Source: Escherichia coli (GTDB lineage: Bacteria; Pseudomonadota; Gammaproteobacteria; Enterobacterales; Enterobacteriaceae). From it: DNA of 64,000 nucleotides. The position numbers are program-made. Numbering within the stretch: position 1 is the first letter of the stretch; each line of letters starts with the position of its first letter. Location of the stretch: the NCBI RefSeq assembly GCF_041248615.1, contig NZ_CP158425.1. One strand, given 5' to 3'. This document shows, in pieces, positions 6,001 through 15,000 of the stretch.

Positions 6001-9000
6001 TGAAGGCTCACCAATTGCCCTGAGTTTCCAGCCTGTAGCCTCGCGTATCAGCTCGGCAAAAACCATGGAGCGCTGGCTGGCGAAGGCGGGTCCGCCAGAA
6101 AGATCGAATCGTGCCATTTCAATATTACGGGCATCTACTGCCCGGATGAAGGCATTCTGAACTTTACCAAAGTGCTGCTGGAGCTTTTCACCATTGTAGA
6201 TCTGAACGATGAACACAATTTTCTCGTACTGAGCGTCAAGGGAATTCAGGCGCACAATAATTTGCTCATCGTCACCATCACCGGCTCCGGTTCGGTTATC
6301 GCCCGTCAGCCAGATATTTCCTGACTTATGGCGAAGGCTGTTGAAAAAGATGATATCGCCATTCACAAGCGTTGGTTTACCATTTTCCACATTGCCGAGA
6401 TCGGTCACCTTTCCGGCTGAATTACACAGGAAAGCGATCACATCAAGGTCGTATTCTTCTTCTTTTTTACCAAAGATCCCGCCGAGGAAACCTTTCTTTT
6501 CCTCATTAATATCCCAACCCAGGCCGATAGTAACGGACGAGAGATCGTATTCATTTTTTTTCAGGCTTACGCCCTGGCCTTTGCTCAGACTGACAGACAT
6601 GACATCCCCTTAATTAATAAAATTATAAGACCACGTTTACTTCTGGCGGCGGCGGTGGCAGGTCTTCAAGACCGATCACTTCTTTTTTGCTGGACTCCAC
6701 TTTCTGACTGCCTACCGAAATGCTCGCACTGACCCATTTAAAGAAAGCTTTAATCGTCGAACTGTCAGCTGTATCGAGCTGAACCACGATTTCAGTGATT
6801 TCTTTGAGGACGCTGGTATCGGCATCATGCCCGGCTGCACATGCCACAACAACGCCGGTTCTGGCCGCTTTAAAGTCATTCAGGCCTTTACGCCAGTCAT
6901 CATTCGGACTTCCATCCGTCATCAGGAATACAAGGGGACGCCAGTCACCTTTAGTGTCAGCCGTCGTTTTCTGTACTTCTTTGGCAATGGAGCTGGCCGT
7001 CAGGGTAAGCGCTGCGCCAAGAGAGGTGGTGCCGCTGGCTGTTAGTGCTGGCATCTGGAAACTCAGGAGGTCTGTCAGGGGGACTGCCTGTCGGGCTGAA
7101 GAATCAAAGGTGATCACTGACACGTAAGCCGTTTCGAGTGCATACGGATCCTGTTTCAGCGTGGTAAGCAGCGTCTGAACGCCATTCTTAACCGCTTCGA
7201 TAGGCTCTCCGTGCATAGAGCCGGACGTGTCGAGTAGCAGATATACGGGTAAGCGTCTCAAATGTAATTCCTTCTTAAGAGATCGGAAGAGGAGAGTAGT
7301 TTCAGGAAGAGGCCAGAGTTTGTAGATTTGATAAAACGGCACGACATCTGTCGGGTGGAGATTAAATACTCAGAAGCGGCATTAAAGAAATAAGTTAACC
7401 ACCATTGAATTACCGACATGTGAATGGCCTCTTATCAGAGAAAAAAATTCAGACCGTACTGGAATATAAAATTTCTGAAAAAAACTCCGGCAAAAATAAA
7501 CTTTCTTATGTATGAAAATCATCATACATCACAGATCTGCATGAATGGAGTGTAAATCGCCCAAAGATTGATGTGTAGCACAAGAGGATGTCAAGACACC
7601 AGGTTTTGTAGGCAGAAAGGCGCTGCTGACATTGCGGGAGGAGAATAGATCAAAACTCCGTCACGCAGATACAGAGGTGAAATATGACAAAACCGGGGTT
7701 TTCACCCCGGTCTGAGATTTAGCGTCAGGACTTTTTAGCGCTGTATTCTTTTATCAGTTCATCAACGGAGTGCAGAGCCAGCTTCTCTACCGCTTCACTT
7801 CGGGTCGAGCCACTCAGCGCAGCCAGACGGTCAATTTTTCTTAAAATCCGCATGCGTAGCGATAATGACACGGCTGTTTTTTTATCCTTATCGAGTACGA
7901 CCTTCCCTGTGGACTCACCGGTTTTCAGTTCAGCATTCTGTGCGAGCGCTTCATTCATCCGGCGAAGGGTCTTTTTATCCAGCTGGCCCGGATTAACGAG
8001 ATGGTAGGAATGACCTGCCTTGCTGTATTTGATCTCCGCAGAATATGACTCGCGTAGCTCTTTGAGTGCCCGGGTTAATGTCGGCTCTGAGCATTCCAGA
8101 CTGGTTATAATGTCGGCAGCGGAAACGGGCTTGCCGGTGCCCAGTAAGTTGGCAAGCTTAAAAATCCGGGCCTGTCTGGTATTTAATTGCATCGTAAGAT
8201 TTAGCCTGCTTAAAGGGTTAGTGGTTCAATAGGCTGAAAAATGAAGGTACTGCTCATCTTTCGAATAACCGGGTGATCGCCTAACGCTTCAACCGGATCA
8301 ATGTGTTCTAAGCCTGCAAAATTTACTGACGACATCTGGCTGCGACTGCATTTGCAGGACAGGATATACTCATCCTCCAGATAGCCGGTCCGCTTACTGA
8401 CCCGTTGCGTAAAGCCTGACACAATCACGTTGTCGAACGGTAGCGTATGTAAAACGATACCGACCAGGCGGAACAAGCAGCCATGGACGTGGCGGGCATA
8501 GTTTTCGCGTACGGCTTTTTGCGTCATGGCTTTTTCCGTCAGCTCCGTGCCCCGGGCATTAACGCCGTAAATCTTATCAGGGAAATCTTCAATCTCAGCT
8601 AAATCAACATCCAGCAGGACTGCTGATAGCTCCGGCTTTACTTCAAATGCAACAAGCGTTTCGCGCGGCCATTCAGTTTCTGCCAGCACACCCGCCAGGT
8701 ATGATTCGAAAAACGCGGCGTCTGTCCGGAACTGCTGCCGGGCATCTGCCTGAGCCGTGGCGAGCCGTTTTTCATGTTCTTCAGCCTCAAACTTCCAGTT
8801 TGCATACTGTTCGGCCCAGGCCGTCCGTTGTTGCTGGTACCGGTGCTGTCGAAGGGTATTCTCACGCTCCACATCAATCAGCTCCTGCTGCCACCGGCGA
8901 AGATTTTCGGCGTGGCGCTCAGCTTTAGCTGATTCCGATTCAAACCATTTACCCAGAAAACTAATGCCTTCGCTCTCGGCAGGCTTTTCCGGCAATGCAA

Positions 9001-12000: not shown

Positions 12001-15000
12001 AAAGGGATCCGGACGCGGCTGATTTCTTCAGTTCCCCGGGCGGTAACAGGTATGAGTTCAGCCTGCTCCAGGAGCCAGTCCACCAACATGGACTGTTCTT
12101 CCGTCATAAAGCTTCGTGGATTCAGGGTGCGATCAACGGCACCGGTACGGAATGGCTCCAGGGCCAGCTCGTCCACCATTTTACGACGGGTCTGAAAGAG
12201 CGTGTCGTCAAGGTCGCTCAGAACAACGGGTTTATTCATAGGTAACAATCTCCACGACGGGCGCAACCTCAGCCAGGGCTTTAAGAAGCTGCGTGTCAAT
12301 ACTTTCTGCGGGTGTCTCAGTACACACAAGAATACGGTCAAACTGCTGGTGGGCGACGTTATAGACAAAATTGGGGATGCCCAGCCCGTAGTTATCCGTA
12401 AAGGAAATGGCGGACTCAATGGCATAACCAACGGCGATAGGGGAGCGGGTGGTCGAACCATAAAGTGCCTGTGCTCCGGCAGCTTCGAGCCGTTCAGCAA
12501 GCAGGAACGGCTCCCAGACGAATTCCCCGGTCCCGAGAACCAGAATACGTTCCCCCTTGCGGACGGAGACCTCATGGCCGAGATCGGCCGCAGGTGCGAG
12601 CATCCCCAGTCGACCCCAGGACTGTTTTCCCAGGATGTCCCATTCTCCGCGTGAAGTTACGTTGACTTTCGGCATGTCCGGGACAGGTGCATCAGGTAAT
12701 GGGGTCCATCCCCACTGACCGCTTACAAGCGAAACCGAAGTGACGGGCAAGGATGTGCGCTCCGACAGGGCGTTGCTACTCCAGTCGGTAAGCGTAACGG
12801 CGATAACCTGTTCAATATGTTGAAGCTTGCCGGTATTACGCAGGGCAGAAAGCAGGTTAATAAAGGTATTACCGGTGGTTGCCTCGTCATCAATCAAAAC
12901 CAGCGTTCGTGCGTTGGTAACACGACGTCTTTTCTCTTCATCATCTGGCAGATAGATCAGATGATCGGTGGCGTGGCTGTGTTCTTCCTTGAACTCGCAA
13001 AGTAACGTGCCATCAACCGGGTGACGGGTAGAGGTCAGATAGACAGATTCACGATGCTGGTGGCGCACTTCATCAAACACACCGGCCCCTAGCCCAACGG
13101 CGGTTTCAGCCATACCGATAAAAAGTACGGGCCCTGTCAGCGTTGCGGGGAACTGGCTGGCAAGCTGTCTGTAGGCCTGCCGCATGACTGAGGGTGGCAC
13201 GGGAATGTGCCTGCCGAGTACTTTGCTGACAAACAGAAAGGCGCGTTTCGGGTTACGTCTTTCAGCGATATCAAACAGGTCATCGAGCGAAACATCACCC
13301 TGGTCGCGGGTTACCTGTATCGTACCGCATGAGAGGGTACGGCGATAAATCATATCTTCGAGGGTATCAGACATAAACACGCCTTAATTCAGATGGTTAG
13401 AGAGTGATTCCGGGTAAACGATGACATCTGTGATGGATCTCACTGCAACCGGAGAAAAGGTATTTCTGGCGCTCTGGATCACCGCATCTTCAGACATCAG
13501 ACCGAGCTTAAAGGCAGCAAACAACCCGGGAAGGTTCACCCCGCTGTGAAGGGTATAACCCACCCCGCCTGACGGACGCATGTTGGTTTCAAGCAGCACC
13601 GGGTTGCCATTCACATCGTTTCGCGTCTGAACATTCACCAGCCCGTCGGCCTTCATAACCCGGGCGCAGTCACAAGCCAGTTCCCAGGCGCTTCCTTCGT
13701 TTACCAGATACTGGATAGCCCCTTCCTTACGGCGTCCCACGGCTGCGAGTATTTCGCCCTTATCCGCGAGGATATCGACGGAAAATTCCGGGCCTGGCAG
13801 GTACGGCATCAAAACAAGGGGTTTAAACGACTCAGAAGCCGATGCTGCTGCAATATACTGTTGCGGACTGACCAGACGATGTTCGGGATGATTAAAGACG
13901 GCCATGGGCGAAGCACTGTCATCAAAGCGCCAGAATCCCATGCCATAGATACCCGTCACCGGCTTCACGCATACCGGGCTGTCCGAGAACGGCGGGGCCG
14001 CGAGGTGCGTCTTTAATTCTGCCAGCGTATTCACCCGCCAGGACGGTACGACCGGGAGCCCGTTTTGCTCCATAAACTGAGCAAAAGTAACTTTTTCGTC
14101 AGCCAGAGTTAACCAGTCGACGCCTGTTGCACCGGTAGTAAGGGTGGCTCCGGTCGATTCAATGGCTGAACGGTGTTCTTCAAACCACTGGCTGTTACGG
14201 CCAGTATGAATATGGTGGATGCCGTAGGTCTGAATGGTTTCCTGAATAAACTGAAGACGTTTTTGAGGATCTTCAGGTTCAGTCAAAGAATAATCGGCAA
14301 CGGAAAGAATTTCATGTCTTTCGTTACGGTGGGAGGCAAATACGGTAATAGCAAAATTATTTTTTTGTGCAAATGATTTTACCCCCTGAATAATATCTCG
14401 CTGGGAGGACAAACCTTCCATAAACCAAATTTTCTTGTTCATTTTTTTTAATTATCCGGAACGCCATGCAAATTTATGATTGAGAAGTGAGTCTATGAGT
14501 GTCTACGCTACATGTCAATCATAATATGATTAATAACTTCAGTGGTTATGGAGTGCGTCAGTGTTTTTTTAGTACCTTATAACGTATTGATATTTAAATT
14601 AAAAATAGAAAAATGAACACCATGAAAAGGATTTATTTTTGTGTTTTTGAAGAAAACTACCAAAATTTCCCTTGTCAGAGAACTTCATCATGATATGATT
14701 TTCTTCGTCAGTTACTAAATATACCTTTGATTGTCTCGGTCATTACCATTTTAAGGAATAAAACATGGTTTCATTAGTTAAGAACCAGACGGTATCACTC
14801 AGCAAAGAATCAGCTGCATTAAGCCAGCTTCATTTCGGTCTCGGTTGGGATCCGGTTAAGAAAAAAGGTCTTCTTGGAGGATTGTTTGGAGGCAACGACT
14901 CAATCGATCTCGATGCTGGCTGCGTATTAATGGACAGCACCGGTAAAACAATTGACACCATCTGGTTCCGCAAACTGGAATCCACCTGCGGCGCTGTTGT

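Follow-up and report, generated by a model that had tools for sequence, protein, structure and literature searches.

Previous computational work (Anantharaman et al. 2012, as summarised in PMC11994780) described a Ter module in which two phosphoribosyltransferases (PRTases), an ATP-grasp protein, a TIM-barrel protein and a HAD phosphatase were predicted to produce a pyrimidine-derived ribonucleoside. The predicted product has been regarded as a nucleoside or nucleotide signal sensed by TerB and TerD (PMC7824862), and a study in Klebsiella referred to the region as a "putative biosynthetic cluster" of unclear function (PMC8115787). An established precedent for the succession of a transferase dependent on phosphoribosyl pyrophosphate (PRPP) and a HAD phosphatase that removes the 5-phosphate is the pair CriT/CrpP; CriT transfers ribofuranose-5-phosphate from PRPP to a hydroxyl, and two separated acidic residues replace the vicinal DD motif (PMC10299916). 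Here we analyse an operon at positions 8210-14442 of a 64,000-nucleotide stretch of Escherichia coli DNA (hereafter the window), and identify it, with near certainty, as the Ter biosynthetic module. The feature is already known, and the interpretation offered in the initial annotation, a pathway making a phosphoribosylated, nucleoside-like metabolite, coincides with the published prediction, which as regards the product is a prediction still. The computational work to which that annotation refers is the study of Anantharaman, Iyer and Aravind (2012), as far as it is represented in PMC11994780, PMC7824862 and PMC8115787.

Over its whole length the window is 100% identical to part of p14408_M1 from E. 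coli (NZ_LT599829.1, positions 64001-128000), a plasmid that is conjugative, of type IncHI2A, and carries mcr-1. Six minus-strand open reading frames (ORFs) lie at 8210-14442 between terW and the divergent terZABCDEF operon, exactly where they had been placed, and the RefSeq boundaries on identical plasmids agree. The genes of the locus, and the hairpin that follows them, are:

13384-14442, minus strand: ATP-grasp ligase (ATPgrasp_Ter, Pfam PF15632), gene 1 of the operon
12232-13374, minus strand: phosphoribosyltransferase PRTase_2 with a C-terminal TRSP domain (PF15609, PF12500)
11466-12239, minus strand: HAD-IIB phosphatase (invariant HAD motifs I-IV, match to PDB 6D3V)
10385-11464, minus strand: StiP, a PRTase-fold domain with a PELOTA/L7Ae-like RNA-binding domain, annotated "cysteine protease StiP"
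9429-10385, minus strand: TIM-barrel C-C bond lyase of the CitE/HpcH kind (Pfam PF15617)
8210-9418, minus strand: DUF4236 protein, accessory, between the lyase gene and terW
7725-8192, minus strand: terW, helix-turn-helix (HTH) regulator (AMRFinder annotation)
7690-7713, minus strand: terminator-like hairpin 3' of terW (10-bp stem with 6 GC pairs, then a T run)
14765-20984, plus strand: terZABCDEF, the divergent partner operon encoding TerD-family, TerB, TerC and VWA proteins (annotation of the identical plasmid)

The components of a Ter module are thereby all present in a ter neighbourhood: PRTase_2 with TRSP, the HAD protein, a second PRTase with a Pelota/L7Ae domain, the ATP-grasp protein and the TIM-barrel lyase. 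The genes are tightly coupled. Those for PRTase_2 and the HAD protein overlap by 8 nt (ATGAATAA), the HAD and StiP genes are separated by 1 nt (TAAAATG), and the StiP and lyase genes overlap by 1 nt (TGATG); the three stop/start junctions quoted in the initial annotation were all correct, and so were its motifs, LVLIDDEATTGNT in the PRTase and DLDDT in the HAD protein. The other intergenic gaps measure 9, 10 and 17 nt, and in a scan of 7300-15000 the hairpin at 7713-7690 was the sole strong terminator-like site on the minus strand. Because the gap between the DUF4236 gene and terW is the one of 17 nt, and the hairpin lies 3' of terW, the transcription unit probably comprises seven genes, with terW last. 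The six genes were thus rightly described as tightly packed, but the single unit that they were thought to form probably includes terW too.

Each of the domain calls first made (ATP-grasp, PRTase, HAD, CitE/HpcH-like and DUF4236) was borne out by profile searches. The ATP-grasp protein matched ATPgrasp_Ter in Pfam (PF15632, E 2.7e-37), and a profile built from 15 homologues matched the large subunit of carbamoyl-phosphate synthetase (CPS; 1.4e-8) and the CPS-like protein 2PN1 (8.7e-8), with weaker matches to biotin carboxylase (0.007) and PurD (0.06). Owing to these matches the Ter ATP-grasp protein groups, by profile similarity, with ligases that activate small carboxylates for attack by an amine; its Mg/ATP residues K160, E219, E285 and N287 are invariant in the homologue alignment. 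The PRTase_2 protein matched PF15609 (1.5e-63) and TRSP (PF12500, 5.1e-23) in Pfam, and in its PRPP loop, LVLIDDEATTGNT, residues D162, D163, E164, T167, G168 and T170 are invariant. Against the PDB its profile gave weak matches restricted to the PRPP loop, to UMP synthase (0.018) and orotate phosphoribosyltransferase (OPRT; 0.11).

The lyase protein matched C-C_Bond_Lyase (PF15617, E 9.3e-114), with weak similarity to RipC (1.7e-8), CitE (2.6e-4) and the citrate lyase structure PDB 3QLL (0.0036). Residues E43, D44, R83, K109, E134, R164 and D169 are invariant, and the similarity to CitE and RipC, together with the conserved acidic residues and arginine, places the protein in the CitE/HpcH-like superfamily. 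By analogy with CitE structures, R83, E134 and D169 would be metal- and substrate-binding residues. The HAD protein gave weak Pfam and NCBIfam matches only, the NCBIfam HAD-IIB model lying far below its cut-offs; across 15 homologues, one of them from a phage and the most divergent at 21% identity, its motifs I-IV (D9 D11 T13, T66, K198, G222 D223 S224 D227) do not vary. For the DUF4236 protein the Pfam match (2.4e-21) is confined to residues 1-56. The label "Restriction endonuclease" is attached in UniProt to some entries that coincide with fragments of this protein at full identity (A0A6G9I2M0, A0A343J046), and a fold search of the protein gave nothing to back that label.

The fourth gene had been described as encoding a conserved unknown protein, and here our results depart from the initial annotation. 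Its product matched the Pfam models StiP (4.9e-89) and PELOTA_1 (4.6e-25), has the alpha/beta core of type I PRTases, and found its best structural matches in PRPP-dependent ribofuranosyltransferase (CriT type), PyrR and HGPRTs. From Pfam and fold it is thus the second protein of the module with a PRTase fold, here joined to an RNA-binding domain of the L7Ae/Pelota type, and the 2012 analysis took StiP likewise; the resemblance to CriT was not visible then, because CriT-type structures date from 2022-2023. The PRPP-type loop of StiP reads V-D154-G-W-T-G-K-G-A-I, with one acidic residue, and the canonical loop of two adjacent acidic residues followed by T-G-x-T is not found in the protein. Aligned by hhalign, the loops of StiP and PRTase_2 coincide, but not significantly (probability 1.5%, E 0.034). 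Residues S97, R100, G102, SIIR126-129, D134, D154, K159, D187, D200, S213, G214, S217, R218 and H227 are invariant across homologues of 35% identity.

The 6.2-kb stretch occurs in 1348 plasmid records and, among 5426 complete E. coli genomes, in 956, where it occupies 698 places on chromosomes and 287 on plasmids; given these occurrences, and specific Pfam matches in five of the proteins (1e-21 to 1e-114), the six-gene arrangement with its family-specific matches is far beyond chance. Word-index homologue searches with the lyase and StiP gave only close enterobacterial relatives (70-99% identity), and diverse homologue sets were drawn from a 50% representative library and from the neighbouring genes of the loci. 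A species-level scan, with one genome per species and a narrow lyase alignment as the profile, gave 569 lyase relatives, and the loci compared below are the best 80 of these 569, all from Gammaproteobacteria.

All 80 loci share one gene order, namely ATP-grasp, PRTase_2, HAD, StiP, lyase. StiP and the lyase are present in 80, PRTase_2 in 79 and the HAD protein in 76; TerZ, TerA, TerB and TerC were found in 76, TerW in 75 (its gene following that of the lyase), the ATP-grasp protein in 57 and the DUF4236 protein in nine. In the 23 loci without ATP-grasp (Xenorhabdus, Proteus mirabilis and others) an ordinary spacer lies between terZ and PRTase_2, and in the four without HAD the PRTase_2 and StiP genes are 52-98 nt apart. 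Both kinds of absence thus amount to clean losses, and the ATP-grasp gene is dispensable. The DUF4236 gene, listed as a member of the operon, is one in this copy but is not conserved in the module; it is an accessory gene that has been inserted between those of the lyase and TerW, as is typical of the mobile versions in E. coli and Klebsiella.

The comparison confirmed the linkage to ter, in 76 of the 80 species loci and in distant metagenomic lineages (L083, L085, L089, L090), where the module enzymes stand beside TerD, TerB and TerC. The window copy is divergent from terZ, whereas in several distant lineages and on a Pseudomonas aeruginosa megaplasmid the module is co-directional with the ter genes. 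Metagenomic fusions beside TerD genes join StiP, PELOTA and lyase (L083 1231-3282) and lyase, PRTase_2 and TRSP (L084 190-2814), and these fusions argue for a pathway that the lyase shares with both PRTases. The remotest homologues of the lyase (31-36% identity) stand outside Ter contexts; one of 36% identity (L091 5323-7882) lies directly 3' of genes of the phosphoribosylanthranilate isomerase family and for a DegT-type aminotransferase, a hint that enzymes of the lyase family may have opened phosphoribosyl-amine compounds as substrates.

Three further loci deserve mention in their own right. The jumbo Acinetobacter phage vB_AbaM_ME3 carries VWA, TerC-like, TerD, PRTase_2, HAD and StiP-like genes in a row (L095 4825-10871), a reduced module without lyase and ATP-grasp. 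A full five-gene module at L092 431-9064 has no ter gene within 7 kb downstream, and lies near matches to type IV CRISPR (Csf3). In an assembly labelled Chryseobacterium sp. 18061 (L018) we found a ter locus whose lyase is 97% identical to the E. coli plasmid version, which suggests contamination or very recent transfer.

The analysis shows where the genes begin and end, which domains and folds they encode, that their catalytic motifs are intact, that they keep their order and stand beside ter genes, and that the palindrome pair is conserved; from there we infer the chemical steps, the nature and target of the product, and the binding of TerW to the palindromes as follows. PRTase_2 would transfer ribose-5-phosphate from PRPP to a small base-like acceptor, which the CitE-like C-C lyase and, where present, the ATP-grasp amide ligase would make or tailor. 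The HAD phosphatase would then strip the 5'-phosphate, and a riboside, that is a nucleoside-like small molecule, would be released. StiP might add a second ribosyl-phosphate, or couple the pathway to an RNA. The riboside would act with the membrane-associated TerD, TerB and TerC proteins of the divergent operon, and TerW, co-transcribed last, would control both divergent promoters through a pair of ATCAT-N3-ATGAT palindromes and so form a regulatory loop. We consider this overall picture of a riboside pathway moderately probable.

Several points weigh against it. The similarity of PRTase_2 to OPRT is weak (E 0.018) and confined to the PRPP loop, and the acceptor is not deducible. The loop of StiP (VDGWTGKG) is one acidic residue short of a canonical PRPP loop, and StiP may thus be no catalyst at all. 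In the literature searched we found no report of detection or identification of a product, in line with the initial annotation, which had called the product uncharacterised. The loss of ATP-grasp (23/80) and HAD (4/80) implies that the end product may differ between lineages. As for biochemistry, Cross et al. are said to have found in 2018 that an orthologue of the HAD protein hydrolyses trehalose-6-phosphate in vitro, which is the sole biochemical datum known for a module enzyme and does not point to a nucleotide. Finally, terZ-F alone confers tellurite resistance in E. coli, and the module is consequently not required for that phenotype (PMC8115787).

What mainly divides the rival explanations is whether StiP modifies RNA as a transferase or is a sensor of the PyrR kind, and whether the product signals or is itself the effector; those that invoke trehalose or proteolysis are unlikely. 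StiP could be a CriT-like, PRPP-dependent transferase that places ribosyl-5-phosphate on a macromolecule, likely an RNA recognised by the L7Ae/Pelota domain, with the HAD phosphatase then stripping the 5-phosphate as CrpP does, and the output of the module would be a ribosylated RNA or other polymer and not only a diffusible nucleoside. It speaks for such an activity that StiP, like CriT, is without the vicinal DD of classical PRTases (PMC10299916), that the HAD gene adjoins stiP, and that no gene of the module is more conserved than that of StiP, which is present, as is the lyase, in all 80 loci. However, no RNA family or candidate structured RNA was found in 4000-22000, no polysaccharide genes lie nearby, and the first PRTase, the lyase and the ATP-grasp protein would be left without a role; we regard this explanation as unlikely. 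In the same Rfam scan of 4000-22000 there was no riboswitch or K-turn RNA that could be a ligand of StiP; a weak match to the anti-hemB small RNA in the terE-terF spacer at 19284-19356 (24.8 bits against a gathering threshold of 49.5, E 0.043) is probably due to chance. We give a small chance to a CriT-like StiP that acts either on RNA or on a hydroxyl of the PRTase_2 product, the latter yielding a disaccharide nucleoside from which the HAD protein would remove the 5-phosphate; if true, the Ter system would include O-ribosylation of RNA or of a nucleoside as a previously unrecognised step, used in defence against stress or phages. The single acidic residue in the loop and the adjacent HAD gene recall CriT, but since CriT, PyrR and HGPRT are not distinguished by the fold scores, the resemblance is a lead and not a result. 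The degenerate loop (D-G instead of D-D/E) and the fused RNA-binding domain would also suit a non-enzymatic, PyrR-like sensor that binds a pathway nucleotide or PRPP and controls the translation or stability of an mRNA, with PRTase_2 as the only catalytic PRTase. Yet the many invariant residues around the predicted active site of StiP would fit catalysis at least equally, the StiP-lyase fusion suggests a metabolic role, and no leader RNA was identified in untranslated regions that, judged from the promoter-like sites, are short (~40-60 nt); a sensor is in our view improbable. Least of all do we expect StiP to be the cysteine protease of its name, which would make the fourth gene proteolytic and not metabolic. 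The name stems from a study of Acinetobacter baylyi that reported protease activity and linked StiP to tellurite resistance and to cell morphology (Reichert et al. 2013, as cited in PMC11994780), and H227 is invariant and C229 nearly so. Nevertheless, the alignment holds no invariant cysteine (C190 and C192 are variable, and two homologues have Ala in place of C229), which disfavours the name, and no protease was among the 60 best fold-search matches of StiP. With neither an invariant catalytic cysteine nor a protease fold, we rejected this candidate as extremely unlikely.

As regards the product, a sugar or trehalose pathway is suggested by the structures that the HAD protein matches over its full length (E 7e-43), namely PDB 6D3V, 6D3W and 6CJ0 from P. 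aeruginosa, which are named "Trehalose phosphatase". A protein of the P. aeruginosa megaplasmid pR11-08, which shares ~93% identity with the crystallised chain (E 5e-161) and bears the annotation "trehalose phosphatase", is encoded in a ter locus between the PRTase_2 and StiP genes (L002 11992-12750), and the module HAD protein is, by sequence similarity, an orthologue of the crystallised enzyme. Such enzymes have served as inhibitor targets and been treated as trehalose-6-phosphate phosphatases, and the "extrachromosomal TPP" of P. aeruginosa is used as one in PMC6838324. Against a genuine trehalose-6-phosphate phosphatase stand the Pfam Trehalose_PPase match, which was not significant (i-E 0.0088), the NCBIfam models, of which no trehalose phosphatase model matched and HAD-IIB stayed far below its cut-offs, and the position of the gene, always between two PRTase genes. 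Moreover, no trehalose-6-phosphate synthase gene is annotated in the loci examined (the window, L001, L002 and L095). The TreYZ and TreS routes to trehalose bypass trehalose-6-phosphate, and HAD-IIB sugar phosphatases are commonly promiscuous. In P. aeruginosa, trehalose synthesis has been attributed to TreYZ and TreS from mutant phenotypes (PMC7549927). From the missing synthase gene, the lack of a significant family match and the TreYZ/TreS routes, we infer that the enzyme is a promiscuous phosphatase of sugar phosphates, with a 5-phosphoribosyl compound as its real substrate, and that its activity on trehalose-6-phosphate would reflect this promiscuity. The trehalose pathway, which we consider very unlikely, was accordingly rejected on the missing synthase gene, the insignificant family match and the flanking PRTase genes, and the "TPP" label is probably a misassigned physiological role. 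A housekeeping salvage pathway was also rejected, as no NCBIfam equivalog cut-off was reached and the distribution is that of mobile elements. The riboside could, on the other hand, be the effector itself and not a Ter signal; as a nucleoside analogue with antiviral or antibacterial action it would poison the replication of phages. The initial annotation had mentioned a link of IncHI2 ter regions to phage inhibition and colicin resistance, and this traces to the ter region of R478 (Whelan 1995, as cited in PMC12054061); in addition, terC deletion lowers phage resistance (PMC12054061), phages carry a reduced module, and the enzyme set would suit an unusual nucleoside. However, transposon insertions in terZ, terC and terD abolish phage inhibition (as cited in PMC12054061), which places the phenotype in the other operon, and we saw no evidence of a dedicated immunity or export gene. 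Nor did any of the seven proteins have a significant defence match in PADLOC-DB 2.0, where the sole matches were PRTase_III-A for PRTase_2 (8.5e-4) and, for TerW, the HTH part of a WYL model. An effector role is in our judgement quite unlikely.

The riboside pathway, as we picture it, also includes control by TerW, and the 322-bp spacer between the two operons carries divergent promoter-like sites together with two palindromes:

14490-14518, minus strand: promoter-like site of the biosynthetic operon (TTGACA-17-TAGACT, 10 of 12 matches; a consensus match only)
14518-14530, no strand assigned: palindrome ATCATAATATGAT, candidate operator 1, abutting the -35 of the minus-strand promoter
14687-14699, no strand assigned: palindrome ATCATGATATGAT, candidate operator 2, overlapping the -10 (TATGAT) of the terZ promoter-like site at 14672-14699

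The motif ATCAT-N3-ATGAT has two matches in the window, both in this spacer, even when one mismatch is allowed. Among the 75 species loci that have this spacer, 73 carry at least one site in the spacer and 70 carry at least two, at a density of 5.7 per kb against 0.04 per kb elsewhere (~145-fold), and in 75 instances the centre of the palindrome lies 60-80 nt from the terZ start. The palindrome is present in all 72 terW-positive loci; two loci truly without terW have one site and none, respectively, and distant modules without terW have no exact match. TerW, whose N-terminal HTH matches the HTH part of WYL-type regulators (4e-5), has been reported as a regulator of ter expression (Valkovicova 2011, as cited in PMC12054061). 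From this co-occurrence, the pair is a candidate TerW operator.

About one in six complete E. coli genomes, Shiga-toxin strains included, carry the ter locus, which also occurs on mcr-1-spreading IncHI2 plasmids and on virulence plasmids of Klebsiella, in which it has been tied to fitness in the gut and to infection. The question of its mechanism is about three decades old, and the biosynthetic operon is the least studied half. Knowing the product would show how TerD, TerB and TerC are controlled, and whether the locus serves signalling, defence or both. The window adds no new kind of system, and what the present analysis contributes is incremental and may help in the design of experiments: the HAD enzyme has already been crystallised under another name, StiP has the fold of a PRPP-type transferase and not of a protease, the conserved candidate operator pair marks a shared control region, the DUF4236 and ATP-grasp genes are dispensable, and terW is probably the last gene of the unit.

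In the remainder of the window, mcr-1.1 is cut by the window start (1-1622) and is followed by a short ORF, an ISApl1 transposase gene (1891-2865, minus strand) and a PAP2 fragment (2955-3473, minus strand) that covers residues 69-237 of the "PAP2 near MCR-1" model on the strand opposite to mcr-1; the colistin-resistance cassette therefore lies directly against the terY cluster. An ORF of 236 amino acids at 3485-4195 had no NCBIfam match. Just past terF, at 23871-25494, lies a pair of genes for an HTH regulator and a HipA-family kinase toxin, and 29137-44557 is rich in DNA-handling genes (an ATP-dependent helicase, two HNH endonucleases, an H-NS-family protein, a DUF1173 protein, a Dcm-type cytosine methyltransferase and a thermonuclease). 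A high-GC (61-65%) resistance region at 49644-63419 carries tet(A)/tetR and a class 1 integron with estX, a HAD-family gene, aadA2, cmlA1, aadA1 and qacL, then an IS256-family fragment and sul3.

Compared with known systems, CriT/CrpP (H. influenzae Bcs3; T. composti 7SHG) pairs a PRPP-using PRTase fold with a HAD-family 5-phosphate phosphatase, as may be the case here, and a CriT homologue heads the structural matches of StiP, with scores that do not set it apart from PyrR or HGPRT; both CriT and StiP are without the vicinal DD motif. CriT and CrpP, however, are domains of capsule and O-antigen polymerases with a polysaccharide hydroxyl as the target, whereas the proteins here are separate; StiP, unlike them, carries an RNA-binding domain and is accompanied by a second, canonical PRTase. 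No glycan synthesis or export genes occur in the window neighbourhood or in related loci, and the polysaccharide setting of CriT/CrpP is thus not found. The module also resembles de novo pyrimidine synthesis (CPS, dihydroorotase, OPRT) with a 5'-nucleotidase added at the end, in that both employ like catalysts in a like succession, here an ATP-grasp protein similar to CPS, a TIM barrel, a PRPP-dependent transferase weakly similar to OPRT, and a phosphatase. But the TIM barrel here is a CitE/HpcH-type C-C lyase and not an amidohydrolase, no protein of the operon reaches an NCBIfam housekeeping cut-off, and the genes lie on mobile elements beside stress and defence genes. PyrR, the attenuator that binds pyr mRNA and is also a uracil PRTase, contacts RNA through its PRTase domain itself, without an L7Ae/Pelota domain, and no target leader RNA of the PyrR type is evident in the window locus. 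The P. aeruginosa "trehalose-6-phosphate phosphatase" (6D3V, 6D3W, 6CJ0), with its gene between those of PRTase_2 and StiP, has been studied as a trehalose enzyme and drug target, apparently without consideration of the Ter context, and its physiological substrate is probably different. It is with the Ter module of Anantharaman, Iyer and Aravind (Mol Biosyst, 2012) that the agreement is closest in kind: the same five domain families, for which the Pfam models were built from that module, the same linkage to TerD, TerB and TerC, and the same predicted nucleoside-like output. The window copy adds a DUF4236 gene between the lyase gene and terW; nothing essential differs.

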